This document shows, piece after piece, positions 7,715 to 61,938 of a DNA stretch of 64,000 nt. The stretch's first letter is position 1. Every line of letters begins with the position of its first letter. A model generated the notes under the pieces. The model was not told the origin of the DNA and searched no databases. It saw only the letters and a list, made by a program, of their open reading frames with translations. Source of the stretch: Candidatus Omnitrophota bacterium (lineage in GTDB: Bacteria; Omnitrophota; Omnitrophia; Omnitrophales; Aquincolibacteriaceae); assembly GCA_035368605.1 (NCBI GenBank), contig DAOSLF010000009.1, forward strand, positions 7,079 to 71,078, given 5' to 3'. The translations under genes were made by a program, and so were the position numbers.

Positions 7715-9409
7715 ATGCTCAATGAGCGCAACGAAGCGCCGGTTTGGAAGATCCTCCTGGTGGATGACGACCCGGATTTCGCCAATATCCTGAAGATAAG
7801 GCTGAGCAAGGAAAAGAACCCGGTCCTCGATATCACGATCTGCCACAACCTCGAAACCGCACTTCAAAGCGTCCGGGGAAATCCCTGCGATCTCGTTCTC
7901 CTCGACCTCATGCTTCCGGATTCCTCCGGGATTGAAACCTTCACGAAAATGAAGGCGGAGGCCAGACATATCCCGGTCGTCATCATGACGGGCCTCGACA
8001 ACGATCAAATCGCGATCAACGCCGTCCGCCGGGGCGCGGAGGATTATCTCGTCAAAAGCGATATCAGTTCGAAACTCCTGATGCGGATCATCCATCACGC
8101 CATCGACCGCCACCGGATCAAGGAAAAGCTCGCCTCCGTCACCGGCCGGCTCCGCAAAACGAACCTGCGCCTTGAAAAGATGGCCCTGCTCGATCCCCTG
8201 ACCGAGCTCTTCAACCGGCGGGGGCTTCAGCAAGCCTTCAGCCGCGAAATCCAGCTCGGCTCGCGCGAAGGTTACAAGCCTCTCGTCCTGCTCCTCGACA
8301 TCGACAACTTCAAACAGATCAACGACACGCTGGGCCATCCCGTCGGCGACATCCTCCTGAAAGAGGTCGCCAAAAGAATCCGGGAATCCGTCCGTGTTTC
8401 GGACCATATCGCAAGGATCGGCGGCGACGAATTCATCCTGATCCTTCCGAAGACCAGTCTTCAGGAAGGTATCCATCTGGCCGAGCGTATCCGGACCGCC
8501 GTGTCCAACACAATCATTTATGTGGGGAAGACTGAAACGATCCGCATTACGACCAGTATCGGCCTGACCCCCGTTTACGGCGAGATCTCCTCCGTCGACG
8601 AACTGCTCGCGATCGTGGATCCCCTGCTCCGGCGGAGCAAACAGAAGGGTAAAGACTGTGTGTCGTATGACGAGATCGAAACGGTACCGGAAGGCGCGCC
8701 GCCCGTTTCCGAGGCGGACCGTTTCGCTTCTGTCCTGAGAAAAGGGGCGAATTTCTTCTCACTGAAACAACCCATCGTGGATCTTGCGGACTTTTCCGTG
8801 ATCGGCTACGAGTTCCTGAGCCGTCTCAACAACGGCGGCGTCTGCATGCCCGATCATTTCTTCCGCATCGCCCGCGAACAGAACATGCTTACACTCGTGG
8901 ACCACCATTGTTTCCGTTCCTGTATCGCGGCCGCCTCCAGGCTCGCGCCGGAATTGCGCCGGCACATCAATCTCTTCCCCGCAACGATCGTCGATGTCGC
9001 TCCCAACGGGGTCATCGAAAAACTGTCGGTCAGCTGCTCGGCCAGGAGTTATTGTTTCGAGATCAGCGAACAGCAAATCCTCGGCGATCCGTCCAACCTG
9101 ATCGGCCCCGTGGAAGTCTTCAAACGGCACGGGATTTCGATCGCGGTCGACGATGTCGGGTTCGGGAACACCTGCCTCGAAAGCCTGATCCTGCTGGAGC
9201 CGGATGTAATCAAACTGGATAAAAAATACGTTCGCGGCATCTCCCGGGATTCTCACATTGAGCGAACGCTCCGCCGCATCCTGAAGGTCGCTGAGGACTT
9301 GGGTGCCGAGGTGGTCGCGGAAGGTATTGAAACCGCCGAAGATCTCGATATTCTTCGGGAGATCGGCGTGAAGTACGGGCAGGGTTTTTACCTCGGAGTC
9401 CCTGCATGA
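7715..9409 (+). CDS. response regulator with GGDEF and EAL domains (c-di-GMP turnover)
   Basis: N-terminal REC (LLVDDDPDF...DLVLLDLMLP). Intact GGDEF (RIGGDEFILIL). EAL domain with an EFL variant (GYEFLSRL, DDVGFG, KLDKKY, AEGIET, GQGF). Confidence 0.85.
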   Translation: MLNERNEAPVWKILLVDDDPDFANILKIRLSKEKNPVLDITICHNLETALQSVRGNPCDLVLLDLMLPDSSGIETFTKMKAEARHIPVVIMTGLDNDQIAINAVRRGAEDYLVKSDISSKLLMRIIHHAIDRHRIKEKLASVTGRLRKTNLRLEKMALLDPLTELFNRRGLQQAFSREIQLGSREGYKPLVLLLDIDNFKQINDTLGHPVGDILLKEVAKRIRESVRVSDHIARIGGDEFILILPKTSLQEGIHLAERIRTAVSNTIIYVGKTETIRITTSIGLTPVYGEISSVDELLAIVDPLLRRSKQKGKDCVSYDEIETVPEGAPPVSEADRFASVLRKGANFFSLKQPIVDLADFSVIGYEFLSRLNNGGVCMPDHFFRIAREQNMLTLVDHHCFRSCIAAASRLAPELRRHINLFPATIVDVAPNGVIEKLSVSCSARSYCFEISEQQILGDPSNLIGPVEVFKRHGISIAVDDVGFGNTCLESLILLEPDVIKLDKKYVRGISRDSHIERTLRRILKVAEDLGAEVVAEGIETAEDLDILREIGVKYGQGFYLGVPA

Positions 9410-11676
9410 TTTTCCGGAAAAAGGATTCCGTCATCTTCTTCACAAAGATCAGGTTCTTTCTGGCCTTCCTGTTCCTTATCCTGCTATCGACCGGCATCTT
9501 CATGTTGCTCATTTACGAGGTCGCTCAGGCCGAAAAAGATGCCCTCCTGATCTCCGTCATGAGCAATCAGGAGGGGTTCATCCACCGGACCACCTTCCTT
9601 GCCTCCAGCTACGCCCAGTCCAACGACCCCCGGGAAAGAAAATCCTTAAGGGACAAAGTCCATGAAACGCTCACCATGATCCTGGTGTTCGCGAACGGTT
9701 CGCCCGACGGGAACATCACGAAAGCTCAAGTCCCCGCCATCCTGAACCGGGAGGTCTACCATCTCTACCGCGGCTCTCCGTCCAAACTCAATGACGAGGT
9801 CGTGGATTACATCGCCTCCGTAAAAAAATTCATGCTCGGTTCACCGATCCATGTCAGTTCAGACTATCCCCATCTCAAGGCGTTGAACGCCCAGACAATA
9901 CGGCTGCTAAGCGTTCTGCGCGCCGGCGTCAAAAAACACCAGCAGGAAACCCGCCGGCAGATCCTCTTTCTCAAGAATCTCGGTATCGCGCTCTTTGTCC
10001 TCATGCTTGTTTCACTGGGGATCGTAGGCCTTTTTGTGTTCATGCCCGTTATTCGCAAAGTCGAGTCCTATTTGCACCAACTGAGGAATGTCAACGACGC
10101 GCTCGAGGAAAAAGTGAGGGACCGCACCGCGGAGCTGGAGCAAAAGGCCACGGAGCTTGCCCTTTCGAACCAACGTCTCCAGGACCAGATCAAGGAGCGC
10201 CTCAAGGCGGAGGACGATCTCCGGGACGCGAACGCCTTTCTGGATTCCGTGATCGAAAACATCCCTGACATGATCTTCATCAAGGACGCCAAGGAACTCC
10301 GGTTTGTCCGGTTTAACCGGGCGGGCGAGGAGTTGCTCGGCCGGCCGAGAGAGGACTTCATCGGAAAGAACGACTATGCGTTCTTTCCGAAAGAACAGGC
10401 GGATTTTTTCGTCCAGAAGGACCGGGAGACGCTCCGGAACAAAGTGCTTCTTGAGATCGCCGACGAACCCATTGATTCCGCGCAAAAAGGACGCCGGATT
10501 CTTCACACGAAAAAAATCCCCATTCTGGACGGCTCGGGAAATCCGATGTACCTCTTGGGAATCTCCGAGGACATCACGGAGCGCATTCATTCCGAGAAAC
10601 GCCTGCGGGAGCTTTCCATGGCCATGGAAAATGCTCTCGACGGCATCGCCAAACTCGATGTAAACATGAAATTCATGGAGGTGAACAAAGCGGTCGCGGC
10701 CACGCTCGGTTACACCCCCGAAGAGATGGTCGGCCTGAACCGTCTTGTAACGATTTGTCCGGAGGACCACGACAAGGTTCGGGCCGCCTTCAAGGTAATG
10801 CAAGAACACGGAAAGGCGGACCTTGAGATCAAGGCGATCCGTAAGGACGGGAACATCATCCACCAATACGTCGTCATTAGCCGGGTCCTGAACGATAAGG
10901 GTGAATTCGACAGCTTTTACTGTTTCTCAAAGGACATCACGGAAAAGAAATATCACGAGGCCATCAATATCAAATCCGAGCTTATCCAGATGGTTTCGCA
11001 TGAGCTCCGGACGCCGATCCACTCGGTCAAGGAAGGGCTTTCGATCGTTCTCGAGGGACTTACGGGTCAACTCGCACCGGAACAACGCGAGGTACTTGAG
11101 ATCGCGAAACGCTGTGCCGACCGGCTGGCCCGTCTCGTCAACGACGTTCTCGCCTTCCACAAACTTGAGGCCGGCGTGATCGATTTCCGGATGAAGCCGG
11201 CCGATCTCAATGCTGTTGTTGCGGATGTCGCGAAAGCCATGGGCCCGCTTGTCAGGGAAAAAGGCCTTTCGTTCTCAACCGAACTCCAGAGGGGCCTTCC
11301 TGCCATTGAGATGGATCAGGACAAGGTCACGCAGGTCATCACGAACTTTCTTCAAAACGCCATTAAATTCACGGTGAAGGGCGGGATCACGATCAAGACG
11401 TCCTTGGCAAACGATTTTGTGACGGTCGCCATCCGGGATACGGGCATCGGCATCCAGCAAAAGGACATCCCGAAGATTTTCAGGAAATTTGGACAGCTCG
11501 AGGCCGCAAAATCGATAGCGCCGGGCGGCACCGGACTCGGGCTCGCGATCTCCAAAAAGATCGTCGAACAGCATCACGGAACGGTCTCCCTGGAATCGGA
11601 ATTCAGGCGGGGAAGCGTCTTTTCGTTTTCCCTTCCGCTCAGTCAGCCGGTCAACTTTCACACGGCGCCGGTTTAA
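9406..11676 (+). CDS. PAS-domain sensor histidine kinase
   Basis: N-terminal TM/sensor region, coiled-coil, two PAS-like segments. HisKA H-box (SHELRTP) and HATPase_c N/G boxes (DTGIGI, GGTGLGL). 4-bp overlap with the upstream GGDEF-EAL gene. Confidence 0.85.
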   Translation: MIFRKKDSVIFFTKIRFFLAFLFLILLSTGIFMLLIYEVAQAEKDALLISVMSNQEGFIHRTTFLASSYAQSNDPRERKSLRDKVHETLTMILVFANGSPDGNITKAQVPAILNREVYHLYRGSPSKLNDEVVDYIASVKKFMLGSPIHVSSDYPHLKALNAQTIRLLSVLRAGVKKHQQETRRQILFLKNLGIALFVLMLVSLGIVGLFVFMPVIRKVESYLHQLRNVNDALEEKVRDRTAELEQKATELALSNQRLQDQIKERLKAEDDLRDANAFLDSVIENIPDMIFIKDAKELRFVRFNRAGEELLGRPREDFIGKNDYAFFPKEQADFFVQKDRETLRNKVLLEIADEPIDSAQKGRRILHTKKIPILDGSGNPMYLLGISEDITERIHSEKRLRELSMAMENALDGIAKLDVNMKFMEVNKAVAATLGYTPEEMVGLNRLVTICPEDHDKVRAAFKVMQEHGKADLEIKAIRKDGNIIHQYVVISRVLNDKGEFDSFYCFSKDITEKKYHEAINIKSELIQMVSHELRTPIHSVKEGLSIVLEGLTGQLAPEQREVLEIAKRCADRLARLVNDVLAFHKLEAGVIDFRMKPADLNAVVADVAKAMGPLVREKGLSFSTELQRGLPAIEMDQDKVTQVITNFLQNAIKFTVKGGITIKTSLANDFVTVAIRDTGIGIQQKDIPKIFRKFGQLEAAKSIAPGGTGLGLAISKKIVEQHHGTVSLESEFRRGSVFSFSLPLSQPVNFHTAPV

Positions 11677-11714: not shown

Positions 11715-13352
11715 TCAGTCTTCGTGTCGGACGCCTTCGACACCGGCGCCGCCAAGAACGACCTTCACATAGGGGCTTTCCTCTTCACCGCAAACAACGC
11801 GTATCCGGAGTTCGGCCTTGCCGCCTTCGGCGGTCCATGATGGATCAAGGACCAGGGAGGGCTCCCGGGATTCGAGCGCTGCGATCTTTTTCTTTTTTCC
11901 GGGCCTGGAAACCTCCGCCACATATCGGATCGTATTTCCATCGACAAAACCATGCCTGACGGCCAGGTCTTTAAAAACGAGTTTCCCGTTCAGAACCTCG
12001 AAAGCATCCAGCGGGGCGGCTTTTGAGAACCAGTATTTCGCGATCAGGTCCCGGCGCTCGGCGAGCGTTTGAACAAGATAATCCTCGTCCTCCGGGCGGC
12101 TGTAGCGGCCCGCTTTGACCATGGTCCGGATATCTTCATCCGTAAAGCTTGCGATGATCTTCGCGGCCCAGAACCCGTCGGCGTTCGTCAGAACACGAAA
12201 GGCCTCATAGGGAAGCTGCGCTTTATGGTCTTCCGGATCAAACTGGTCATTGCTGAAATAGCCGATCGCGGGAGACTTGTGGGGCATTTCTCTGGCCCTG
12301 CGCCATTTTTCCTGCCAGGGTTTTTCCCAAAACCCGAGGGCAAAGACTGCCTTCGTGATTTCCCCGTAATCGATCGCGTATTCGTGCCCGAACATCGGGG
12401 GCTTGGCCCCGCCCGCGGCCGCGCCGAAAGCGCTGTTAAAGTCGAAGAGATAGCGCTTGAGGACCGTTTTTCCGTTTTCGGTCACAGCCATTTCAAGCGT
12501 GTTGCTCTCCCGGATATCGTTGTTGTTGAGCCACGCCGAAAAAACGCTGAGCGCCCGGATTTCCCGGCGGTCGCGGTGGTTGACCGGGTCTTCCGGATCG
12601 TTCTGCCGACGCGAACGAAAACTGAGATGGCCGACGTTCTTCCCCGGAACGATCTTGCTCGCCGAGGCGAGGTATTCCCCGTCCTCGGTCACAGGGAGGA
12701 ATGAAAGATACTGTTCCAGAATCTCCGGGGTCATTTTTTTACGGAATCCGGTGTCGTCATAAGTGTAGGCGTTCTCTCCGATCGTGATATCTTCGGCCTT
12801 GAACCGGAGCACGGTGTACTGAGGCACGTGATACCCGATCGCATGATAGAACCGGCTGGCCGCCACTTCCGCGGCCGTGGCGAGCTCCAGGGACCCTTCG
12901 TTATCAAACTTCAGACAATACCTGTCCCCTTTGGCGTCCTCGATGAAAAAACCCGGATGAAGTCCTTGTTGTTTTCCTTTGGTGATCTTCATCGGCGCGC
13001 TCAGGTCGGGACCGGCGGTCTCGGCGGAGCCTTTGGCAAGCTCCTCGTTCGAAAGACGCCGCCTGCCATGGCGATTCGTGAAGAACGAGGAATCGGGAAC
13101 CTCGTCAAAAACGTTCACATTCGCCGCAGGAATCTCTTTCCGGAAGATCTTCCTGCCCCAGCGACCGAGGTCCAGCTGGTTCACGCCTTCATAATAGATA
13201 TTCTGATCGAAAACATCCTTACATAGCGTGGTTTCCCGCTCCCTGAATTTCGGGCTCTCGGACGCGCGCGAGACCATCGGCACGGCAAGGATCATGGTCA
13301 CCGTTATGACCAGGCTGTTTACCGTCAAATGTTTCTTCATAGCTCCCCGCAA
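11715..13352 (-). CDS. secreted hypothetical protein with a protein-kinase-like motif pattern
   Basis: Signal peptide (MKKHLTVNSLVITVTMILAVPMVSRA). No confident family match. It shows NNNDIRESN (D-x4-N catalytic-loop-like) followed about 20 aa later by DFN-SAFG (DFG-like), plus upstream CLKF and AAEVAAS (candidate beta3-Lys and alphaC-Glu). Start abuts the stop of the upstream OMP gene. Confidence 0.55.
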   Translation of the reverse strand: MRGAMKKHLTVNSLVITVTMILAVPMVSRASESPKFRERETTLCKDVFDQNIYYEGVNQLDLGRWGRKIFRKEIPAANVNVFDEVPDSSFFTNRHGRRRLSNEELAKGSAETAGPDLSAPMKITKGKQQGLHPGFFIEDAKGDRYCLKFDNEGSLELATAAEVAASRFYHAIGYHVPQYTVLRFKAEDITIGENAYTYDDTGFRKKMTPEILEQYLSFLPVTEDGEYLASASKIVPGKNVGHLSFRSRRQNDPEDPVNHRDRREIRALSVFSAWLNNNDIRESNTLEMAVTENGKTVLKRYLFDFNSAFGAAAGGAKPPMFGHEYAIDYGEITKAVFALGFWEKPWQEKWRRAREMPHKSPAIGYFSNDQFDPEDHKAQLPYEAFRVLTNADGFWAAKIIASFTDEDIRTMVKAGRYSRPEDEDYLVQTLAERRDLIAKYWFSKAAPLDAFEVLNGKLVFKDLAVRHGFVDGNTIRYVAEVSRPGKKKKIAALESREPSLVLDPSWTAEGGKAELRIRVVCGEEESPYVKVVLGGAGVEGVRHED

Positions 13353-14678
13353 TTAAAAAGCGACCTTGTTCTTCACGTAGAATTTGGTGCCTTCGTCGCC
13401 GTGGGCGACTGAAATATTCAGGACCGTATGTTTGGAATGGCTCACGTAAAAACCCACACCGTAAGACTCCCGGAAATCGCTGAACTTGAACGCGCTGAAC
13501 TCGTTGAACGTCTGGCCTTCGTCCAGAAAGACCGCCGCATTCATGCGAAAATCCCTGTATTCCCAGATTGCGTAGCGATATTCGATGTTGAAGAGCAGCG
13601 CGCTTTCGCCATAGAAACGGTTGTACGTGAAGGCCCGGAAGGTTTCGCTGGTCCTTTGGGACGACCCCATGCCGCCAAGCCTCGTCATATCATAAAACGG
13701 GATCTCGCCGCCATTCACCTCATCGTGATGTTCCCCGAAAAACCGGACCGCGAGCACGCGCCGCGGAGAACCCAGCCGGAAATATTTCGCGGTGTCCAGC
13801 TGGTAGGTGAAGAAGCGGGCTTTGCCGCTGTCCACGCCTTCCGTGAACTTAAAAGTTAACTTCTGATAGCTTCCCCTGGTGGCCTCGTCGTGGCTGTCTC
13901 GCGTGTCGCGCAGCAGCACCGCCTTCCAGCTCAGTTCCTCGCCGCCATAGAGGCCCGGGATGTCCCGCCCCGCGAAGATCTCGGTCATGTCCCCTTTTCC
14001 CTTGTGCGCACGGTGTTTCAGCTGATTCTCTTTAAACTCGAACGTCCCGGTCAGGTCCAGTGTCGGAGAGAATTCATAACCCACGTTGTATCCCAGCGTG
14101 GTCGTTTCCATGCGGACGGAAGAACTGTCGCCAAGGCTTGTGTCGGGCCCGATGCCATAGAACGGTTCCCGGCTGCGGTGGTCAAAGTTGAACGTCCCGG
14201 AACTATGGAATCCCGTTTCTCCAATACGTTGTGCCCCGATCTCGGAATCGACAACGAACCGATTGTCCATCGCATACCGGAGGGACGCCGTAGCGATCAG
14301 GTCGGGGTAATCCTCTTTTTGACGCGCGACCGCCACGAGATCCGCGTTGCCACCCATAAGTGGCAGGATCGCCGAATCCGTGAACGCAAGATGCGGCGTG
14401 AAACCATATTCTTTCATTCTGTCGTAGATGTAGATCGCCTTGTCAGCCACATGGTGATTGTCGATATAGACCAGCGACTTGTCGACGGGCCATTTGACGA
14501 GACGGAACGGAAGCTCCAAAAGCGACGAGACAGGGTCTTTCAGCCTTTTGGCTTTGAGCGGTCCGTTCGGATAAACGGGGGCATAGGTGTCCTGCTGCGC
14601 GAAAGAGGCTCCCGCAAACGCGGCGATGCCGACGGCCACGAGGGCAACACGGATGATGTTACGACATTTCCTGGTCAT
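13353..14678 (-). CDS. outer-membrane beta-barrel protein, Omp85/surface-antigen(D15)-like
   Basis: Signal peptide. Alternating-hydrophobic beta-strand pattern through the C-terminal 300 aa. Terminal aromatic signature ...KFYVKNKVAF. No clear POTRA repeats seen. Confidence 0.55.
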   Translation of the reverse strand: MTRKCRNIIRVALVAVGIAAFAGASFAQQDTYAPVYPNGPLKAKRLKDPVSSLLELPFRLVKWPVDKSLVYIDNHHVADKAIYIYDRMKEYGFTPHLAFTDSAILPLMGGNADLVAVARQKEDYPDLIATASLRYAMDNRFVVDSEIGAQRIGETGFHSSGTFNFDHRSREPFYGIGPDTSLGDSSSVRMETTTLGYNVGYEFSPTLDLTGTFEFKENQLKHRAHKGKGDMTEIFAGRDIPGLYGGEELSWKAVLLRDTRDSHDEATRGSYQKLTFKFTEGVDSGKARFFTYQLDTAKYFRLGSPRRVLAVRFFGEHHDEVNGGEIPFYDMTRLGGMGSSQRTSETFRAFTYNRFYGESALLFNIEYRYAIWEYRDFRMNAAVFLDEGQTFNEFSAFKFSDFRESYGVGFYVSHSKHTVLNISVAHGDEGTKFYVKNKVAF

Positions 14679-15178
14679 GAGATCAGCTGGCTGTCCGTTC
14701 TTTCCCTTTGTTCTTCCAACAAGCGGTCCAGAAGACCCAGTTCGTTGAACAGGACGACCCTGAGTTCACAGGTTTCCGTCCCGATCTTCACCAGATAAGA
14801 ACGGCCTGTTTTGCGGGACCTTGAGGCAATACTTACAACGAACGCTTCCGCCGTCGGCGCGTCCGAGCGATATCTGGCATATTTGTACCGCATGTGCGCC
14901 GCCGCTTGCTGAGACGTATGGGTCACGCCGTTGCGGATGAACTCAACGGAGGATTCCCTGGTCCTCTCGATCAGGTAATCGATCCTCGCCCTCTGGTATT
15001 CCGAGGTCGCGGGCGTTGTCTTCCGCAATCTCCGGAAGGCCTGGTAAGCCGTGGGATCTTCGACCGGGCCAAGCGTCAGCTCGTCGCAGGGGGTTTTCAC
15101 CTCCTCCGCTATAGCCGCCGGACCTGCGATCAAAAACAAGAGCGCCAAAACCGAAACGAGACGAACCAATCGCTCCAT
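14675..15178 (-). CDS. DUF5329-like periplasmic protein
   Basis: 167 aa with a signal peptide. Motif RIDYLIERTRESSVEFIRNG...H...KY resembles the DUF5329 family. 4-bp overlap with the downstream OMP gene. Confidence 0.45.
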   Translation of the reverse strand: MERLVRLVSVLALLFLIAGPAAIAEEVKTPCDELTLGPVEDPTAYQAFRRLRKTTPATSEYQRARIDYLIERTRESSVEFIRNGVTHTSQQAAAHMRYKYARYRSDAPTAEAFVVSIASRSRKTGRSYLVKIGTETCELRVVLFNELGLLDRLLEEQRERTDSQLIS

Positions 15179-15179
15179 T

Positions 15180-16490
15180 CTACAAACCTTCCTCCGAGTA
15201 CACTCGCAGCTTTCTATGAATGAACGCCGTGATCACAAACCACAGCGGCATCAATATTAGAACAAGAATACCGATCCTTTCAACAGAAAGTCCCAACAGG
15301 GGTGCCGCCAGCGCCATGTAGATTCCCGCGAGCGTTTTGGCGCCGCGATAACCCAACATGTCGATCGCGGGCTTGACCCTCCGCCTGAGATGCGCCGGGA
15401 TCGGAAGATAAAGGATCTCCTTGCTCGCCTGCTGGATCGAATAATTCATTCCCGAATCGTACATCTTGTAAAAAATCCCGACAAAAAGGGCCGGCGATAA
15501 CGCGCTGACAAGAGACAGGCCGGCAAGGCCCACAGGCAGGATCCAGAGAGAAATCCCGACCCCGTAACGTTTGAGGAGCTTCCCGGTGATAACGAGCTGA
15601 AGGATGAAGGAGAGGGCGTTCTGCCATCCATAAAAACCTCCGTAGAAAGCCGTAATCGCGTCTTTCCCCTGGATCGCCATCTGAACGACGCCGCCGAACT
15701 GGTTCTCCACGATCGTCGAACTCATCTTGGCAATAACGATAATCCCCGCGATGAGGGCGAGATACGACGCGGTCGCGAACGGATGCTTCTTCGCTTCTTT
15801 TTCCTTGAGAGCTTCATGCGTTCCGGCCGCGGCGATACCGCCTCCGACCTCCACGGCGCCGGAGGCCTTCGGCAGGATGCATTTCCAGAGGAAAGATATC
15901 AGAAAAATACAAAGGACAAGGATGACCACCACTACAAGAAGGAGATCCTCGGTCCTGAGCCACCGGACCGCGAAGTTCGTTATGATCCCGCCGAGGATTC
16001 CGCCCAGCGAGCCGCCGCTGATGATAAGCCCGAAGAGGCGTTTCGCCTCTTCGGGCCTGAAGATATCGTTTGCCAGAATCCAGAACTGCGTGGTGATCAT
16101 GGCCGAAAAGGCCGATTGCCAGATATAGAAAGCTGCGGACACGTAGGGAAGGTTCCTGCGCGCAAAGAACCAGAAGAGGAGGAGGGTTCCGATCAGGAAT
16201 CCGAGGACCGCGGGATAAAGAACCTTATGGGAAAGGCGGCGGGCCGCCAGCGAATAAAGCCAGACGACGGCGATAAGGAAGAGCCCTTCTCCGATATTCA
16301 CGTAGCGGAGCTTGTCGGCGCTGAACTCGGAAAGAAAGAGAGAGCTTCGGACCGGCTTCAGGATATAGATCGTCGAAATCGTGAGGAGAAAATAGCAGAA
16401 CATCAGGAAGGTCTTTGTGCGCTCCCCGGGATGGACCTCTGCAAAGGGCCCGACAAGCCGGGAAAAAACCCTTGAAAAAAATCCGCTCAC
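15180..16490 (-). CDS. TLC/Npt-like nucleotide (ATP/ADP) transporter family or MFS-type transporter
   Basis: 436 aa, about 12 TM. FWILANDIF...EAKRLFGLI resembles the conserved LFW..AN.I...EAKR.Y segment of Npt1/Npt2 nucleotide translocases. The family call is tentative. Confidence 0.45.
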   Translation of the reverse strand: MSGFFSRVFSRLVGPFAEVHPGERTKTFLMFCYFLLTISTIYILKPVRSSLFLSEFSADKLRYVNIGEGLFLIAVVWLYSLAARRLSHKVLYPAVLGFLIGTLLLFWFFARRNLPYVSAAFYIWQSAFSAMITTQFWILANDIFRPEEAKRLFGLIISGGSLGGILGGIITNFAVRWLRTEDLLLVVVVILVLCIFLISFLWKCILPKASGAVEVGGGIAAAGTHEALKEKEAKKHPFATASYLALIAGIIVIAKMSSTIVENQFGGVVQMAIQGKDAITAFYGGFYGWQNALSFILQLVITGKLLKRYGVGISLWILPVGLAGLSLVSALSPALFVGIFYKMYDSGMNYSIQQASKEILYLPIPAHLRRRVKPAIDMLGYRGAKTLAGIYMALAAPLLGLSVERIGILVLILMPLWFVITAFIHRKLRVYSEEGL

Positions 16491-16882
16491 CGCACCTCTC
16501 CTTTTTCAAAGGCACCCTCAAAGAACCTGATCTCGGGCGCGAGGCCCTCCTCCAACGTGATACCCATAACATCAAAAGAGACCGGGGGGTCCTGGAGCCT
16601 CTTGTCCTTGAGGTACCAGGCGGCAAGCTTCACGAGCTTCACCTGTTTCCGGAGATCCACGGCTGCCTCGGGTGATCCGAATCCTTTTCCGCTCCGGGTC
16701 TTCACCTCCACAAAATGAATCCGTCCCGCCTTTTCGGCAACGAGATCGATCTCTCCGAGGGCGCACCGATAGTTCGCCTGAAGGACCTTAAAACCTTTTT
16801 TCCTGAGATATTCCGCCGCACAGACCTCCCCTCGATCCCCGACGGAATAACGGAACGGTTTCGGGTTCGGGGCGATCTTCAT
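16487..16882 (-). CDS. yraN: YraN family (UPF0102) endonuclease
   Basis: About 130 aa with GE.DLVA......FVEVKTR, the hallmark of YraN. Conserved position downstream of rnhB. Confidence 0.75.
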   Translation of the reverse strand: MKIAPNPKPFRYSVGDRGEVCAAEYLRKKGFKVLQANYRCALGEIDLVAEKAGRIHFVEVKTRSGKGFGSPEAAVDLRKQVKLVKLAAWYLKDKRLQDPPVSFDVMGITLEEGLAPEIRFFEGAFEKGEVR

Positions 16883-17643
16883 GTGAGAGCTTTTTCAAAC
16901 GGCCCTTTTTCCGAGAACGCGACCGGCGCAAAACTACGCCGGTGGACGGGACAGGGGCCGAATGCCTGCAGGGCTTCCAGATGCTCGGCGGTCCCATAAC
17001 CCTTGTGCGCGTGGAATGCATAAGCGGGATAAAGACCGTGGAGATGCTTCATCCACCGGTCACGGAACACCTTTGCGACAATCGAAGCGGCCGCGACCGA
17101 GGCCGATTTTTGATCCCCGCTGACAATGCCACGTTGCGGAAGGGGGAGGTCCAGGCGGAGCGGACCGTCGATAAGGACAAACGCCGGGGTATGGGGAAGC
17201 GCAAGGACGGCCCGCTTCATGGCAAGGCGCGTGGCTTCATAGATATTGATTGTATCGATCGTTCTTTCGTCCGCCGTGCCCACACCGACAAGGGCATGAC
17301 GCACGATCTTGAGAAACAGTTTTTCGCGGGAGACGGGTGAGAGTTTCTTGGAGTCATTGATTCCCGCGAGCTCATCGGCCCTCTCCAGGATCACAGCCGC
17401 CGCGACAACCGGCCCCGCAAGCGGTCCCCGGCCGGCCTCATCCACTCCGGCCATCCATCCCGAAGCAAGGATATCCCGGTCAAACTCGAGGAGCCTTCCG
17501 AGACACTCGCGACGGGCCGTTTCCCTTGAAAAACTTTCTCCCTTGGAGAAAGAGGGCGCCTCATTCGCGCTCCCGTCTCTCTCATACTCATTGACCGGCA
17601 GGTCTTTCACTCTTTTCACCCCAAAACCGCGACATCCGTTCAC
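16879..17643 (-). CDS. rnhB: ribonuclease HII
   Basis: GVDEAGRGPLAGPVVAAAVIL catalytic motif and RNase HII core. The N-terminal about 60 aa may be an extension; the true start is uncertain. Confidence 0.85.
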   Translation of the reverse strand: MNGCRGFGVKRVKDLPVNEYERDGSANEAPSFSKGESFSRETARRECLGRLLEFDRDILASGWMAGVDEAGRGPLAGPVVAAAVILERADELAGINDSKKLSPVSREKLFLKIVRHALVGVGTADERTIDTINIYEATRLAMKRAVLALPHTPAFVLIDGPLRLDLPLPQRGIVSGDQKSASVAAASIVAKVFRDRWMKHLHGLYPAYAFHAHKGYGTAEHLEALQAFGPCPVHRRSFAPVAFSEKGPFEKALT

Positions 17644-17654
17644 GGCTCATTCGC

Positions 17655-17677
17655 GGGGTTCGTCATAACGAACCCCG
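17655..17677 (-). terminator. stem-loop between rplS and rnhB (GGGGTTCGT-tatg-ACGAACCCC)
   Basis: Perfect 9-bp GC-rich inverted repeat immediately after the rplS stop. No U-tract follows, so intrinsic-terminator status is doubtful. It may be an attenuator or processing site. Confidence 0.2.
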
Positions 17678-17683
17678 AAGCGA

Positions 17684-17995
17684 TTACTTTTTCTTCTTGA
17701 AGTGATAGAGCTTTGCGCGGCGGGCCTTTCCCTTCGAAGCGACCGTGATCTTCTCGATCGACGGCGAGTAGAGCGGGAAAAGCTTCTCGACCATGTCTCC
17801 GTAGCTTTCCTTGACGACCGAAAAACTCGCGTTGGCGCCGCGGCCCTTTTTGCGGATGCAGATACCCTCAAAAAGCTGAAGGCGGGACTTGTCGCCTTCC
17901 TTGACCTTGATATGGACCTTCAGCGTGTCCCCGACGCGGAACTCGGGAATCTTCTTTGACTCAAGCTCTTTCTCGATCAATTTTATTTTGCCCAT
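17684..17995 (-). CDS. rplS: 50S ribosomal protein L19
   Basis: Clear L19 match (EFRVGDTLKVHIKVKEG...RLQLFEGICIRKKG). Confidence 0.9.
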   Translation of the reverse strand: MGKIKLIEKELESKKIPEFRVGDTLKVHIKVKEGDKSRLQLFEGICIRKKGRGANASFSVVKESYGDMVEKLFPLYSPSIEKITVASKGKARRAKLYHFKKKK

Positions 17996-18678
17996 GATTT
18001 TCTCCTTGAAGATGTTAACAGATCAGGCCGTCTTTCCTTCGTGACCTTCTCGGCCTCTTTTTTTCGCCAGGCCTCGACTTCTTTGTGATGCCCCGACACC
18101 AGCACGTTGGGCACCTTCCACCCCCGGTATTCCCGGGGCCGTGTGTACTGCGGATGCTCCAGCATGCCGCATTCAAAACTTTCGCGAGCGAGCGATTCTT
18201 CGTTCCCGATAACCCCCGGGACCAGCCTCGCGACCGCCTCGATCACGCAAAGGGCCGGCGCCTCGCCGCCCATCGTGATAAAATCCCCGACCGAGATTTG
18301 CTGGTCGACCAGGTGGTCCTTCACGCGCTGGTCGACGCCTTCGTAGTGGCCCGCGATCAGCACAAGATGCTTCTTCTTCGCGAGCTTGCGCGCCAGCTTC
18401 TGGCTCATCGGTTCGCCCTGCGGGTCCAGAAGCACTACAAATCCTTTCGGGGCGACCGCTTCCACGCATTCAAAGATCGGCTCGGGCTTCATGACCATCC
18501 CGGCCCCTCCCCCGAACGGTTTGTCGTCCGCGGTCTTGTGCCGGTCATGCGTCCAATCCCGGAGATCGTGGACCCGAACCTTCACAAGCCCGCGATCCTG
18601 TGCCTTTTTCAACAAGGACTCGCCCAGCGGGCTTTTAAAGAACTCCGGGAAAAGCGTCACCACATCTATGGATAGCAC
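17983..18678 (-). CDS. trmD: tRNA (guanine37-N1)-methyltransferase
   Basis: TrmD motifs (IDVVTLFPEFF, LIAGHYEGVDQRV, SVGDFITMGGE). Confidence 0.9.
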   Translation of the reverse strand: MLSIDVVTLFPEFFKSPLGESLLKKAQDRGLVKVRVHDLRDWTHDRHKTADDKPFGGGAGMVMKPEPIFECVEAVAPKGFVVLLDPQGEPMSQKLARKLAKKKHLVLIAGHYEGVDQRVKDHLVDQQISVGDFITMGGEAPALCVIEAVARLVPGVIGNEESLARESFECGMLEHPQYTRPREYRGWKVPNVLVSGHHKEVEAWRKKEAEKVTKERRPDLLTSSRRKSWAK

Positions 18679-53816: not shown

Positions 53817-55439
53817 TTACTGGTCTTCGTGATGTAGAACGACGGCGATCCGGTTGATGAAAACCTGCTGGATGATCGAGAACAGGTTCTGGAGCGTCCA
53901 GTAAAGCGTCAATCCGGACGGCATGTTGTAGCAGATGAACCCGAAAAAGATCGGCATCAAATTCATGATTGCGGCCTGTTCGGGCGTCGAACCGGGCTGC
54001 TGCGGTATGGTCTTCTGATACCAGACCTGGGAGGCCGCCATCAGGATCGGAAGAAGGTTGAGCGAGTTCCATCCGAGAAGCGGCAATGACTGTCCGAACG
54101 TGACGAGCCGGTCAGGCGCCGAAAGGTCCGTGATCCAGCCGATGAACGGCGCGCCGTGCAGTTCGATCGCTTCGGGGAGCAGGCGGAACATCGCGATGAA
54201 GATCGGAATCTGGATCAGCATCGGCAGGCATCCCATCACGGGGTTGACCTTGTTCCGGCGGTAGAGCTCCATAAGCTCCCGCTGTTGTTTCTGCGGATCA
54301 TTTTTGTAGTGTTCCTGGAGCGCCTTCATCTTCGGCTGGATGGCCTGCATCTTTTTCATGTTGGCGTAGCTGACATGGGTGAGCGGCGCGAACACAAGTT
54401 TGATCAGGAGCGTGAGCAGGACGATCGCCCATCCGAAGTTATGCGTGAACCCGTAAAAAAACTTCAGAACCGCGAGCAGGATCGTCTTGAATCCTCCGAA
54501 GAATCCCCGGGAGAAAACATTCTCGAAATCAAAACCGAAACTCTTCAGTGTTTCATAGCGCTGCGGCCCCGCATAGACCAGGAAACGCTGAGACCCTTCG
54601 CTCCCCGGGGCAACGGTGAGAGGCTGCGGGTCAAGGGTTCCCGCTATGACCTCCCCGTCGGCCCGCGCGGACCCCGAGGCAATCCTGTTGTCGGGTTTCA
54701 CCAGCAACGCGAAATATTTTTTGATCATGCCACCCCACACCGCCCCCTCGGGGACGGCAAAACCTTTCTTTTTCAGCTTCCCGAGATCGGCTGTATAAAG
54801 TTTTTCCGTGTAGGCCACGGCATCGAAGAACCCGTAGTTCTTTTGATAATCTTTCTCGTGGTTCATCCCGTAGGTCACCGTCGCGGGAAAGACCCTTTCG
54901 CGCGATGACAGGTTCTTGATCCGCACCGTGAGATCGATCACCGGCTTGTCGTCCCGCACCGTGAACGTTTTGGTGAGGATGTATTGCCCGGGAAGCTCAT
55001 AAGCGAACTCGAACGTCTCATTCTTTTCTCCGCGGCGCGTCATTTTGAAGATCGTGTGCGCAAGATCCGCTGTTTCTCCTCTCAGGTTAACGGCGAAAAT
55101 GCCGCCGGTCCGCTCCGGCGCATTAAAGAACTCTGTTTTGGTGAACGCTTCCCGTCCCGGCTCTCCTTTATAGAAAAGCCGCGTAACCGTTCCTCCCAGC
55201 GTGGAAAACTCGATCTGATAAAGCGCGTTTTCAAAGAGCGCCGTGGTGGCTTCCGCCGCTTCCCGGAGATAGGTCGTTTGGCTCGGCGTCAATGGCGCTT
55301 CGGTGGCCGCGGAAGAAGCGCTGGTCGCGACGGGTTTCTGCATCGCATTCGGGTAGAGCCATTTCACAAAAACGGGATAAAGTATGAAAATAAGGGCGGA
55401 AACGACGACAGCCTTCAAAAAGTTTTTTTCCATGCTCAA
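53817..55439 (-). CDS. yidC: membrane protein insertase YidC
   Basis: N-terminal TM, large periplasmic domain, and C-terminal 5-TM 60KD_IMP core (PLTHVSYANMKKMQAIQPKMKALQ). Confidence 0.9.
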   Translation of the reverse strand: MSMEKNFLKAVVVSALIFILYPVFVKWLYPNAMQKPVATSASSAATEAPLTPSQTTYLREAAEATTALFENALYQIEFSTLGGTVTRLFYKGEPGREAFTKTEFFNAPERTGGIFAVNLRGETADLAHTIFKMTRRGEKNETFEFAYELPGQYILTKTFTVRDDKPVIDLTVRIKNLSSRERVFPATVTYGMNHEKDYQKNYGFFDAVAYTEKLYTADLGKLKKKGFAVPEGAVWGGMIKKYFALLVKPDNRIASGSARADGEVIAGTLDPQPLTVAPGSEGSQRFLVYAGPQRYETLKSFGFDFENVFSRGFFGGFKTILLAVLKFFYGFTHNFGWAIVLLTLLIKLVFAPLTHVSYANMKKMQAIQPKMKALQEHYKNDPQKQQRELMELYRRNKVNPVMGCLPMLIQIPIFIAMFRLLPEAIELHGAPFIGWITDLSAPDRLVTFGQSLPLLGWNSLNLLPILMAASQVWYQKTIPQQPGSTPEQAAIMNLMPIFFGFICYNMPSGLTLYWTLQNLFSIIQQVFINRIAVVLHHEDQ

Positions 55440-55648
55440 TCCTCGACAGGGTCATAGCCGCCCGGATGGAACGGGTGGCATTTGCAAACACGTTTTGCCG
55501 AAAGCCATAAGCCTTTCCAGAAACCTTTTTTGGCAATGGCTTCTTCGGCGTAATGGGAACAGGTGGGTTCAAACCGACAGGCCGGTCCGATCAACGGGGT
55601 CATAACGGCCCGGTATGCTTGGAACAACCAGGAAAAAAATCTTTTCAT
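55436..55648 (-). CDS. yidD: membrane protein insertion efficiency factor YidD
   Basis: IGPACRFEPTCSHYAEEAIAKKG...CHPFHPGGYDP is the canonical YidD motif. Confidence 0.85.
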   Translation of the reverse strand: MKRFFSWLFQAYRAVMTPLIGPACRFEPTCSHYAEEAIAKKGFWKGLWLSAKRVCKCHPFHPGGYDPVED

Positions 55649-56019
55649 ACAAGAATGCCCGTTCTCCGGAAAAGTTCGCCGAGATCCCGATTCGTCTGTT
55701 CCTGGTCGGGTATCGCGCGCCCTTCTCTTGCTTTCACGAGGATCGCGATCCCGGGACGAAGCGCCCCCTGCGTCGCGCGGAACGACTCTCTGACCCTTCG
55801 TTTGATCAGGTTGCGTCTTGTGGCCCGAGCCTGGGTTTTTTTACTCACGACCACACCCAGCGCCGGTCTCGCCGACGGCTCGATCCCGACCGCCGACTTC
55901 TCGCCGGCCCAGACATAGAAAAAACGACCTCGTGCGAAAGTGCCCTTTTTGACGAGGTTTTTAAAAGCCGCCTGCCCGCGAAGCCGTTGCTCCGCCGTAA
56001 AGCGCTTTTCGTTTTTCAA
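55645..56019 (-). CDS. rnpA: ribonuclease P protein component
   Basis: RnpA fold motifs (LGVVVSKK...RNLIKRRVRE). TTG start abutting the rpmH stop. Confidence 0.8.
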   Translation of the reverse strand: MKNEKRFTAEQRLRGQAAFKNLVKKGTFARGRFFYVWAGEKSAVGIEPSARPALGVVVSKKTQARATRRNLIKRRVRESFRATQGALRPGIAILVKAREGRAIPDQEQTNRDLGELFRRTGILV

Positions 56020-56157
56020 TCAGACTTGGGTCAGGCGCTTTCTGCCTTTGCGGCGACGGCGCGCGAGGATTTTTCGCCCGCTTTTCGTCCGCTTGCGGGC
56101 CAGAAAGCCGTGTTTGGAACGACGTTTTCTTTTGGAGGGCTGATAGGTCCGTTTCAT
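56020..56157 (-). CDS. rpmH: 50S ribosomal protein L34
   Basis: Translated by hand as [45 protein letters not shown] (45 aa), which is canonical L34. It is not in the ORF track because it is under 60 aa. Confidence 0.85.
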
Positions 56158-56496
56158 GGTAGCGGATTATATCGAAAAAACATTCGATATCCAGCTTTTT
56201 ATTTCTTCTGCCGCGGTTCTCTCTCCCAATATTTATCTGCGATGAAAAAATTTTCTTTGTTATGGACATTTTTACCTATCCGGGTAAAATACTCCCTTTC
56301 TCCCGGAAATGTTTCTCTCTTTTTTCCGGGAGTTTTATTTTTTGTTCTTTTTAGCCTGTGAATATTCTGTTGATATTCTTTGTTTTAAATTTAATATCTT
56401 TTTTAACCAAGCTTGGAATCGTGCGTTTTTACAATCTCTTTTGTTTAATATCTTGTTGATAACTAATTATCCTCCTGGCTTGAAAGGGTTTGCGTA
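56158..56496. other. oriC candidate region 1 (AT-rich rpmH-dnaA intergenic with degenerate DnaA boxes)
   Basis: About 340 bp, strongly AT-rich relative to the window. DnaA-box-like 9-mers with 1-2 mismatches: TGTTGATAA (about 56455), TTATCCTCC (about 56470), TTATGGACA, TGTGAATAT. A tttgttttaaatttaatatctttttt stretch could serve as the DNA-unwinding element. Confidence 0.5.
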
Positions 56497-57846
56497 ATGT
56501 TGCCTTCCAGCGACACGGATCTTTCCGGAACGTGGTCAAAAATTTCCTCCGTTCTTTCGAGAGAGCTTAGCGAGCAATCTTATAAAACATGGTTTGAGAA
56601 TGTCTGGCTCCTGAAAGCGGATGCTTCGTCTATCACGTTGCGGGTTCCGGACAGTTATTATGGAAAGTGGCTTGAAGATCATTATCAGAATCTGATCCTC
56701 TCTTCCGCAGCCGAAATCCTCGGGAGACCTGTTTCTGTTTCTTATCAGGTGGTTGCCGCTCAAAGCGTTACGACATCAACGCCTTCCGTGTCCGCGCCTC
56801 CCCGAGAGAAGGGACCGGGAACTATTTCTCTTAATTCCGCCTACACATTCGACAACTTTGTCATCGGGCCCGGTAATCGTTTCGCGCATGCGGCAGCTAT
56901 GGCAGTAACGGATGCGCCCGCCAGACAATATAATCCTCTTTTTATTTATGGCCCTACCGGCCTCGGGAAAACACATCTTTTACAATCGATAGCTTGTGAG
57001 ATCAGCAGGAAGAATTCTCATTTCAAAATTCTTTATATTTCCAGCGAACAATTTACCAACCAGTTAATCAATGCCATCCAAACACGCACAACACATCAAT
57101 TTCGCGCAAAGTACAGAACGCTGGATCTTCTTCTTATTGATGATATTCATTCGATCGCCGGTAGAGATTCGACGCAGGAGGAGTTTTTTAATACCTTCAA
57201 CTCTCTCTATGACGCCCACAAACAGATTGTTGTCACCAGCGATCGCCCTCCTAAAGAAATTCCGAGCCTTGAAGAGCGTCTCGTTTCCCGCTTTGGCTGG
57301 GGTTTGGTAACTGATATCCAGCCGCCCGATTTTGAAACCCGCGTTGCCATTCTTAAAAAGAAAATAGAAAAAGAAACGGTGTTGGTCCCGGATGATGTTC
57401 TTTATTTTATCGCGGGGAAGATCAAATCAAATATCCGGGAGCTGGAAGGGGCATTGATAAGGGTGGTGGCTTACTGCACCCTTACCCGGACAGCGCTGGA
57501 TGTCAGGTTAACCCAGGATATCCTTAAAGATGCGGTTAAAGAAGAGGCACAAAAATTCTCTATAGAAGAAATCCAGAAAACCGTTGCGGATTATTTCCAG
57601 ATTAAGGTTTCTGATCTTCGGGCAAAAAAAAGGATTCTTTCCGTTGTTCGTCCCCGGCAGATCGCCATGTATCTTATTCGGGAATTAACCGGACACTCCC
57701 TTCCGGAGATTGGTGAGTTTTTTGGGGGAAAGGATCATACAACTGTTTTACATGCCTGTAATAAAATTTCCCGAGAAAAAGAAAAAGATATCGGGTTGCG
57801 GGGGATATTGGATAAAATAACAAGCCTGTTGAGAAAAGAAGGGTGA
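56497..57846 (+). CDS. dnaA: chromosomal replication initiator DnaA
   Basis: AAA+ Walker A (GPTGLGKTHLL), sensor motifs, and C-terminal DNA-binding domain (DHTTVLHACNKI). Confidence 0.9.
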   Translation: MLPSSDTDLSGTWSKISSVLSRELSEQSYKTWFENVWLLKADASSITLRVPDSYYGKWLEDHYQNLILSSAAEILGRPVSVSYQVVAAQSVTTSTPSVSAPPREKGPGTISLNSAYTFDNFVIGPGNRFAHAAAMAVTDAPARQYNPLFIYGPTGLGKTHLLQSIACEISRKNSHFKILYISSEQFTNQLINAIQTRTTHQFRAKYRTLDLLLIDDIHSIAGRDSTQEEFFNTFNSLYDAHKQIVVTSDRPPKEIPSLEERLVSRFGWGLVTDIQPPDFETRVAILKKKIEKETVLVPDDVLYFIAGKIKSNIRELEGALIRVVAYCTLTRTALDVRLTQDILKDAVKEEAQKFSIEEIQKTVADYFQIKVSDLRAKKRILSVVRPRQIAMYLIRELTGHSLPEIGEFFGGKDHTTVLHACNKISREKEKDIGLRGILDKITSLLRKEG

Positions 57847-57971
57847 TGATCCACAGGTGATTTTTTTTGTAATTATTTCAAAATAAAACAGTTAGGGAAT
57901 TATCCACATTTTCACAAGTACTGGTTCTACGACGACTGTTTTTTAAAAAAGACAGAAGGAGAGATAGGGAT
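57847..57971. other. oriC candidate region 2 (dnaA-dnaN intergenic DnaA boxes)
   Basis: Perfect DnaA box TTATCCACA at 57900-57908. TGATCCACA (1 mismatch) at 57847-57855. AT-rich spacer between them. Confidence 0.55.
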
Positions 57972-59072: not shown

Positions 59073-59110
59073 ACGGTAAAAAGCGCCGATAACAGAGCGC
59101 AAAGCATACG

Positions 59111-61938
<2,828 letters not shown>

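Follow-up and report, generated by a model that had tools for sequence, protein, structure and literature searches.

The window analysed here is a stretch of 64,000 nucleotides from a Candidatus Omnitrophota contig (DAOSLF010000009.1, assembly GCA_035368605.1, positions 7,079–71,078), on the minus strand of which four adjoining genes encode a TLC/NTT-like transporter, a DUF5329 protein, an Omp85 barrel, and an exported protein with the fold of an atypical kinase. We have very little doubt that the exported protein adopts a kinase fold and forms a conserved module with the Omp85 barrel, and we propose, with a probability of about 0.45, that the whole constitutes an envelope-spanning module for extracytoplasmic, nucleotide-dependent phosphotransfer. 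The evidence comprises the kinase fold itself with its five intact catalytic and ATP/Mg residues, the obligate adjacency of the barrel and kinase genes, and the recurrent linkage of this pair to TLC and DUF5329 genes, together with the sequences of the kinase-fold, Omp85, and DUF5329 proteins, which predict that all three are targeted beyond the cytoplasm.

Fold and active site of the exported protein

The exported protein is encoded by the last of three minus-strand open reading frames (ORFs; 14675..15178, 13353..14678, and 11715..13352) that a preliminary description of this DNA had singled out, all of which are present at these coordinates; its residues are numbered here from the TTG codon of the 545-residue ORF. 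No family had been recognised for it, and Pfam, NCBIfam, a phmmer search of PDB sequences, and a PDB profile search likewise give no match, only noise (PUA_4, eL36). The accompanying suggestion of a kinase-like fold of the HipA or PI3-4K type is upheld by an AlphaFold2 (AF2) model (predicted local distance difference test score, pLDDT, 84.4; predicted template-modelling score, pTM, 0.85), by the PDB neighbours of that model, and by recurrent sub-threshold matches to HipA_2 and HipA_C. The model shows a bilobal fold, with strands β1–3 and helix αC in the N-lobe and with αE, catalytic loop, hairpin, and DFG motif in succession in the C-lobe, the kinase core being preceded by helices and followed by an FN3-like domain. 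The structural comparison could have shown a non-kinase fold; the best PDB neighbours are, however, all atypical protein-kinase-like folds, and Foldseek returns the same set, with CtkA as the nearest neighbour and structural-neighbour figures of 11.2 for PI4KIIα, 10.6 for Fam20 xylosylkinase, 10.0 for Fam20C, 10.2, 10.0, and 9.4 for HipA-type kinases, 9.4 for CotH, 9.3 for actin-fragmin kinase, and 8.3 for MavQ.

Pfam scans of 56 diverse family members match HipA_2 in 8 and HipA_C in 6, all below threshold (best E-values 7.4e-5 and 0.007, respectively), and other families in no more than two; one member (P0229) scores 13.1 bits against Pfam HipA, for which the cut-off is 27. As modelled, the protein is a member of the protein-kinase-like superfamily, within its HipA/CtkA/PI3-4K/Fam20 branch, and it falls outside the HipA family proper because its Pfam scores are sub-threshold, it is an exported protein, and an antitoxin is lacking. 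A HipB/HipS-type antitoxin context is not found, the neighbours being Omp85, DUF5329, and TLC genes; the protein bears a signal peptide, the PADLOC defence-system models hit none of the four module proteins, and no profile match exists between the protein and PDB HipA sequences. The signal peptide, which had been noticed at the outset, is of the Sec type (MKKHL...SRA/SE, without a lipobox), and a hydrophobic N-terminal segment is present in 237 of 246 family members. A few members (P0210, 742 residues; P0211, 1158 residues; P0246, 969 residues) are extended at the C-terminus by long segments without a Pfam match.

The kinase-like motifs stand in the order originally described, CLKF (146), AAEVAAS (160), NNNDIRESN (276), and DFNSAFG (304), and take up canonical kinase topology in the model, where K148 lies at the end of β3 (strand 144–149), E162 in αC (helix 157–172), D279-x4-N284 in the loop after αE (helix 268–275), and D304 just after the hairpin 285–302. 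Conservation was counted over 127 family representatives that are 27–44% identical to the window protein, and here each of the five kinase positions (K148, E/D162, D279, N284, and D304), all of which the window protein has, is conserved at about 89–94%; kept across this range of identity, the motifs are not a matter of chance. G306 is found in 90/127, so that the family consensus is a true DFG, and the window protein has DFN. Six residues are invariant (G173, R263, R266, G310, D392, and W395), and R94, D139, D150, D252, D255, H259, R262, H300, and R433 are each kept in more than 93%. On this pattern and the model, the kinase-fold protein may bind nucleotides and transfer phosphate.

Position 148 is glutamate in about half of the Omnitrophota alignment, and the argument that K148, being variable in Omnitrophota, is not the catalytic lysine was considered and rejected: lysine is found in 115/127 representatives, and the glutamate variants carry a G134R/N284D switch. 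In this Omnitrophota subclade (loci L001, L005, L092, L093, and others), K148/G134/N284 have become E148/R134/D284 in 20 of 156 sequences; the corresponding codons in the window lie at 12909–12911 (148), 12951–12953 (134), and 12501–12503 (284), and the window protein itself shows the canonical K/G/N combination. By analogy, the switch suggests not decay but a remodelling of the active site in which the basic residue has moved as in WNK kinases, the placement of a basic residue in the Gly-rich loop being reminiscent of these enzymes.

Two of the most conserved stretches lie outside the kinase motifs. One is NVNxFDEVPDSxFFTNR (window 13071–13124, residues 77–94), which served as the search pattern in the locus scans described below; the other is DDPxDxxxHxxRRExR (window 12555–12597, residues 252–266), comprising D252, D255, H259, R262, R263, and R266, whose basic/His cluster may be a candidate site for phosphate or an anionic substrate.

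Gene neighbourhood and partner proteins

The kinase-fold family is large: an exhaustive hidden Markov model (HMM) search finds 3,327 clusters at 50% identity with E ≤ 1e-3, 942 of them with E ≤ 1e-30, and a scan covering a single genome from each GTDB species finds at least 582 confirmed stretches that carry it. The best 80 of these at least 582 stretches belong to Acidobacteriota (Vicinamibacterales, Bryobacterales, Solibacter, and Terriglobia), Calditrichaceae, Rhodothermales, and Krumholzibacteriia, and homologues for which a source is named come almost all from Candidatus Omnitrophota. To follow gene order, 169 loci from exact-protein look-ups and two collection scans were scored by phmmer with the four window proteins as queries, which gave a fully flanked set of 89 non-redundant loci (at least 4.5 kb upstream and at least 4 kb downstream) and a gene-order set of 160 non-redundant loci in which only directly contiguous, co-directional genes were counted.

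An Omp85 homologue is present in all 89 fully flanked loci, where the barrel gene adjoins the kinase-fold gene, almost always immediately upstream and co-directional, so that the synteny proposed for these two genes holds across several phyla, the pair being found in Omnitrophota, Acidobacteriota, Calditrichaceae, Rhodothermales, and Krumholzibacteriia. The DUF5329 gene, which had been named as a partner on the same footing, accompanies the pair in 19 of 39 loci from the clades nearest to the window and in none of 50 more distant ones; as a universal third partner it is therefore rejected, and as a partner within the nearest clades it stands. It usually adjoins a TLC gene. A TLC homologue (E < 1e-15) lies within the locus in 28/89 fully flanked loci, and in about 34 of the 160 loci it directly adjoins the pair in the same orientation, in five gene orders: omp85-kin-tlc-duf5329 (10 loci), tlc-duf5329-omp85-kin (8, plus the window), tlc-omp85-kin (8), omp85-kin-tlc (4), and duf5329-omp85-kin-tlc (3). 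The pair alone, omp85-kin, accounts for 103 loci, other orders are single cases, and several junctions in related loci are 4-bp overlaps. That TLC stays linked to the pair in five gene orders and in two or more phyla is strong evidence, from comparison of the loci, for a functional coupling. K148 is kept in 28/28 TLC-linked kinases and absent in 15/61 unlinked ones (Fisher p = 0.002 overall and p = 0.001 within the clade of at least 45% identity, both uncorrected for shared ancestry), and no fully flanked locus with E148 has a linked TLC gene. When all neighbouring ORFs were clustered, nothing recurred besides housekeeping genes and a convergent PAS-histidine kinase/GGDEF-EAL pair, and no phosphatase, substrate, or other fifth component of the module came to light.

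The arrangement of the pair varies in Acidobacteriota. Some genomes contain two or three Omp85/kinase-fold pairs, in tandem or divergent, within about 8–13 kb (L027:1–7584, L017:1–7611, and L057:2343–7545), and in a few paralogues (L031, L017) the order is reversed to kin-omp85. A membrane-anchored Hanks-type Ser/Thr kinase (Pfam Pkinase 3.3e-42, L080:3059–4681) is encoded in the flanks of 16 Acidobacteriota loci; in L080 its gene lies just upstream of the Omp85 gene, and both clade synteny and a functional link are possible.

The barrel had been described as an Omp85/D15-type protein with an aromatic C-terminus and no obvious POTRA repeats, and its Pfam (Omp85, PF01103, 1.6e-14, above threshold) and NCBIfam (Omp85_fam, 2.7e-27) matches, its invariant C-terminal F441, and its model all agree with this. 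In the model (pLDDT 84.4), a signal peptide and a disordered linker lead to two periplasmic helices that form a hairpin (residues 49–90), and 16 strands follow (93–436). The lid-lock motif FxDxG of β13 is present as FLDEG (384–388), with D386 and G388 invariant; the equivalent of the L6 motif (V/L)RG(F/Y) is ambiguous, and R348 and R354 are invariant. A Pfam search at E ≤ 1 matches only Omp85, hence neither POTRA nor DUF5982, and residues 49–90 form two long helices rather than a β-α-α-β-β unit; since it has no POTRA, the barrel falls in the noNterm class, which has been proposed to act in membrane biogenesis (Heinz & Lithgow 2014, PMC4104836). In score it is nearer to BamA/TamA than to TpsB.

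The transporter matches Pfam TLC (PF03219) at 3.3e-12 (46.4 bits against a cut-off of 21) and TIGR00769 at 4.5e-13 (48.9 bits against an equivalog cut-off of 387.2), and its sole sequence relative in the PDB is the NTT "ADP,ATP carrier protein 1" (9j3n, 4.8e-5), with which it shares the motifs FWxxANdI..EAKRlF and KExxYxP...K..ID. Orthologues at other loci, confirmed both in Omnitrophota-type and in Acidobacteriota loci, score 40.8–74.7 bits against Pfam TLC. Among the orthologues in related loci, the long ones carry HEAT repeats, which places them in the NTT-HEAT group of free-living bacteria; these proteins are explicitly stated to have no known function, and the characterised NTTs are all importers that take up host ATP (PMC5381601).

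The DUF5329 protein is matched by its Pfam family (PF17263) at 1.4e-18 (67.4 bits against a cut-off of 27), as is its orthologue in L157 (3.4e-18), the Pfam identification holding for Omnitrophota-type and Acidobacteriota loci alike, and a PDB sequence search with it finds only noise (RibD, 0.03). Most homologues (L003:4080–4685, L111:5186–5686, L157:11172–11696, and others) have a lipobox (L-x-G/A-C) and are predicted lipoproteins, unlike the window copy, which has a plain signal peptide.

Table 1. The module genes, the mapped parts of the kinase-fold protein, and the adjoining upstream genes (window coordinates)
Feature	Coordinates	Strand	Basis or conservation
Exported kinase-fold protein, 541 aa	11715..13340 (ORF to TTG at 13352)	minus	ATG start
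Sec-type signal peptide MKKHLTVNSLVITVTMILAVPMVSRA/SE, without lipobox	13263..13340	minus	translation
Conserved N-terminal motif ANVNVFDEVPDSSFFTNR, residues 77–94	13071..13124	minus	family-wide; R94 nearly invariant
Bilobal atypical kinase core, residues ~118–445	12018..13001	minus	model
K148, candidate β3 ATP-binding lysine	12909..12911	minus	kept in 115/127
E162, candidate αC glutamate	12867..12869	minus	E/D in 116/127
Catalytic-loop-like D279-I-R-E-S-N284 (D-x4-N)	12501..12518	minus	D279 in 113/127, N284 in 116/127
DFN (D304), DFG equivalent	12435..12443	minus	D304 in 119/127
C-terminal FN3-like β-sandwich, residues 448–545, ending in conserved ..HED	11718..12011	minus	
POTRA-less (noNterm-type) Omp85 outer-membrane barrel, 441 aa	13353..14678	minus	Pfam Omp85, model
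DUF5329 protein, 167 aa, signal peptide ..LIAGPAAIA/EE	14675..15178	minus	Pfam DUF5329
TLC/NTT-like MFS inner-membrane transporter, 436 aa, no HEAT extension	15180..16490	minus	Pfam TLC
Housekeeping string yraN-rnhB-rplS-trmD	16487..18678	minus	ORFs and overlaps; context

Of the junctions in the window (Table 1), the 4-bp overlap between the DUF5329 and Omp85 genes is as first described, its sequence being ATGA, whereas the 0-bp gap reported between the Omp85 and kinase-fold genes is an artefact of the start codon, arising only with the TTG. A Shine-Dalgarno sequence (GGGGAG) lies 6 nt 5' of the ATG at 13340, and a database protein that is 100% identical (P0001) is 541 residues long, so that the kinase-fold gene most likely starts at this ATG and not at the TTG at 13352, which makes it 11715–13340 with a 12-nt spacer. 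The three genes of the preliminary description are thus joined as claimed in kind but not in extent, as a fourth, co-directional gene, that of the TLC protein, precedes them (15180–16490), ending 1 nt before the DUF5329 gene and overlapping the end of yraN by 4 bp at its start, and is itself preceded by the co-directional string yraN, rnhB, rplS, and trmD with gaps of at most 40 nt. This housekeeping string and the module form a probable single transcriptional unit; a scan of the locus for consensus promoters and terminators gave no signal beyond that of shuffled sequence and hence no information on the limits of the operon. The same string lies upstream of the pair in L003–L006 and in 36–41 of 85 related loci, and in the Omnitrophota-type clade the pair stands at the end of a conserved prfA-prmC-murA-rpsP-trmD-rplS-rnhB-yraN string.

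On the plus strand, a response regulator-GGDEF-EAL gene (7715–9409) overlaps a PAS/HisKA histidine kinase gene (9406–11676) by 4 bp, and this pair converges on the 3' end of the module with a gap of 38 nt; in L001/L002 the module is likewise followed by these two genes, homologues of which occur in 17 and 24 related loci, respectively. Farther away, window 53817–61938 contains yidC (minus strand), dnaA (56497–57846), dnaN (57972–59072), and gyrB (59401–61938), with which a dip in GC (0.43 at 56–58 kb) and the minimum of the cumulative GC skew coincide. The chromosomal replication origin is very likely located here. Lying about 43 kb to its left, on the minus strand, the module is transcribed in the direction of replication.

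The proposed mechanism and its alternatives

In the mechanism that we propose, the envelope would be spanned by a TLC/NTT inner-membrane transporter, the periplasmic DUF5329 protein, the POTRA-less Omp85 barrel, and a Sec-exported atypical kinase with an FN3-like domain. The kinase-fold protein would be an active phosphotransferase in the periplasm or at the outer membrane, with a substrate that could be an envelope protein, a glycan, or a lipid, and the barrel would be its dedicated anchor or translocon; the transporter would be an NTT-like antiporter working "in reverse" with respect to those of parasites, letting cytoplasmic ATP out and periplasmic ADP in and so supplying the kinase, and DUF5329 would be an accessory to this transporter. 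Functionally, such a system would most resemble Fam20C of the Golgi lumen, which a lumenal ATP carrier is thought to support. Carried to its full extent, the analogy would have a periplasm that is deliberately supplied with ATP, exported by the NTT antiporter with the help of the DUF5329 lipoprotein and fuelling an Omp85-docked kinase on envelope or surface substrates, an idea that we put forward tentatively and consider somewhat doubtful.

Several points weigh against the proposed mechanism. The periplasm is classically regarded as ATP-free, and the catalysis, ATP binding, and localisation that the mechanism calls for are predictions from models and sequence, while the physical partnership of barrel and kinase-fold protein is a presumed one. 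No member among the 56 scanned reaches the Pfam gathering threshold of the HipA family proper, to which the window protein has no match at all, and nucleotide transport is predicted for a divergent TLC protein whose score lies far below the TIGR00769 cut-off. A linked TLC gene is found in only about 21–31% of loci, most Acidobacteriota loci consisting of the pair alone; the change of K148 to E in an Omnitrophota subclade means that canonical ATP binding is not universal; and the correlation between K148 and TLC linkage may stem from a single evolutionary event.

The layout of the genes also recalls two-partner secretion (TPS), and it is conceivable, if unlikely, that the barrel moves the kinase-fold protein to the surface or into the medium as an effector or toxin, in which case host, prey, or competitor cells would supply the ATP, as for CtkA, and the linked NTT would import host nucleotides. 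The nearest structural neighbour, CtkA, is a translocated Ser/Thr kinase (PMC5536186), an Omp85 gene beside the gene of a signal-peptide-bearing partner is the TPS layout (PMC11358297), characterised NTTs import host ATP (PMC5381601), and the window organism belongs to Omnitrophota. However, the barrel is POTRA-less and BamA-like and no TPS domain accompanies it, and high conservation, a housekeeping context, and abundance in large Acidobacteriota genomes all count against this export. The secreted effector envisaged in the preliminary description is accordingly disfavoured, as the conserved housekeeping context speaks against a fast-evolving effector, and the barrel, closer to BamA/TamA than to TpsB and devoid of POTRA, lends no support to the notion that it exports the kinase-fold protein. 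A TPS system proper (type Vb) was rejected, there being no POTRA, no TPS domain or β-helix in the model, and no haemagglutination or TPS hit in Pfam.

We consider it improbable that the module serves nucleotide scavenging, with the kinase fold binding or processing external nucleotides for an NTT importer and with Omp85 and DUF5329 as accessories. Such a role would agree with the fact that the characterised NTTs are all importers (PMC5381601), with the conservation of the ATP/Mg-binding residues K148, N284, and D304 and the presence of K148 in every TLC-linked locus, and with the adjacency of the DUF5329 and TLC genes, but the catalytic-base position D279 is conserved as much as the binding residues, and most loci have the pair without a linked TLC gene. 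The barrel, moreover, keeps the FxDxG lid-lock, and a role as a small-molecule channel is not known for Omp85 barrels; we also know of no MFS/NTT carriers that use binding proteins.

A non-catalytic scaffold is likewise improbable: here the kinase-fold protein would be a pseudokinase-type subunit of a POTRA-less Omp85 machine for the biogenesis of outer-membrane proteins or lipids, comparable to the accessory subunits of BamA/TamA, and the TLC linkage would be incidental or regulatory. The obligate pairing, the housekeeping context, the BamA/TamA-like barrel, the subclade without the β3 lysine, the periplasmic ATP source, which is not established, and the membrane-biogenesis role proposed for noNterm Omp85 proteins (PMC4104836) can all be read in this way. 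Conservation of five catalytic and nucleotide positions at about 90% over 27–44% identity would, however, be unusual for a pure scaffold, the lysine-less subclade shows the coordinated K148E/G134R/N284D switch and not decay, and the TLC linkage occurs in five independent gene orders. That there is no functional module at all, the genes being mere neighbours and the motifs chance, has next to no probability and is effectively refuted by the synteny and fold results, even though the promoter/terminator scan was uninformative.

Relation to known systems and significance

Each part of the module comes from a known superfamily: protein-kinase-like (HipA/CtkA branch), Omp85 noNterm, TLC/NTT, and DUF5329. 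The nearest kinase relatives are those of the HipA superfamily, especially Helicobacter pylori CtkA (3akj) and HipA/HipT (4pu3, 7ab3, and 7wcf), for which the Pfam scores here stay below gathering level; in contrast to them, the present protein has a Sec signal peptide, the DEVPDSxFFTNR segment, the H259/R262/R263/R266 cluster, and an FN3-like domain, and it has no HipB/HipS. CtkA requires type IV secretion (PMC5536186); the present protein is paired with an Omp85 barrel. Fam20C/Fam20B, CotH, and PI4KIIα are 9–15% identical in structural alignments, belong to other kingdoms and compartments, and have no Omp85 partner.

Like the noNterm Omp85 proteins (PMC4104836) and their Leptospira paralogues (PMC11358297), the barrel has 16 strands, a C-terminal Phe, and FxDxG but no POTRA; a function for this class is not known, and its genes often stand beside that of a putative partner. 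Unlike its described members, which have no extension, the barrel bears a conserved two-helix periplasmic hairpin and has no DUF5982 match, and the partner is a kinase-fold protein rather than one of the Big/DUF1566 lipoproteins that accompany the Leptospira paralogues. An Omp85-family barrel in an operon with a dedicated extracytoplasmic partner is also found in TpsB/TpsA and TamA-TamB, but those systems differ in that POTRA, a TPS domain, and an AsmA/DUF490-like partner are all lacking here and the barrel is nearer to BamA/TamA than to TpsB. The transporter resembles NTT/TLC proteins in its Pfam TLC match above cut-off, in the motifs in common with 9j3n, and in the HEAT repeats of its long orthologues; unlike a typical NTT, the window copy is short (436 residues, no HEAT), scores far under TIGR00769, and is encoded in an envelope operon, not in the genome of an intracellular parasite.

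The opinion that this is not a described system has been borne out, as no Pfam, NCBIfam, or PADLOC model covers it and the literature on DUF5329, on Omp85 with a kinase fold, and on periplasmic kinases or periplasmic ATP yielded no description of the combination. An ATP-supplied periplasmic kinase system would be categorically new, a prospect that we consider somewhat doubtful; if real, it would contradict the textbook picture of a Gram-negative periplasm without ATP-driven chemistry and give bacteria an equivalent of Fam20C and the lumenal ATP carrier of the Golgi. A first functional context would also be provided for the POTRA-less noNterm Omp85 proteins (PMC11358297) and for the NTT/TLC proteins of free-living bacteria (PMC5381601), and the bacterial kinome would gain a large kinase-like family of at least 3,300 clusters at 50% identity that has no Pfam model. 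Even on a conservative reading, an exported kinase-fold protein obligately paired with an Omp85 barrel in at least four phyla is a well-defined and testable envelope system, and it has members in Acidobacteriota orders from which representatives have been cultured.

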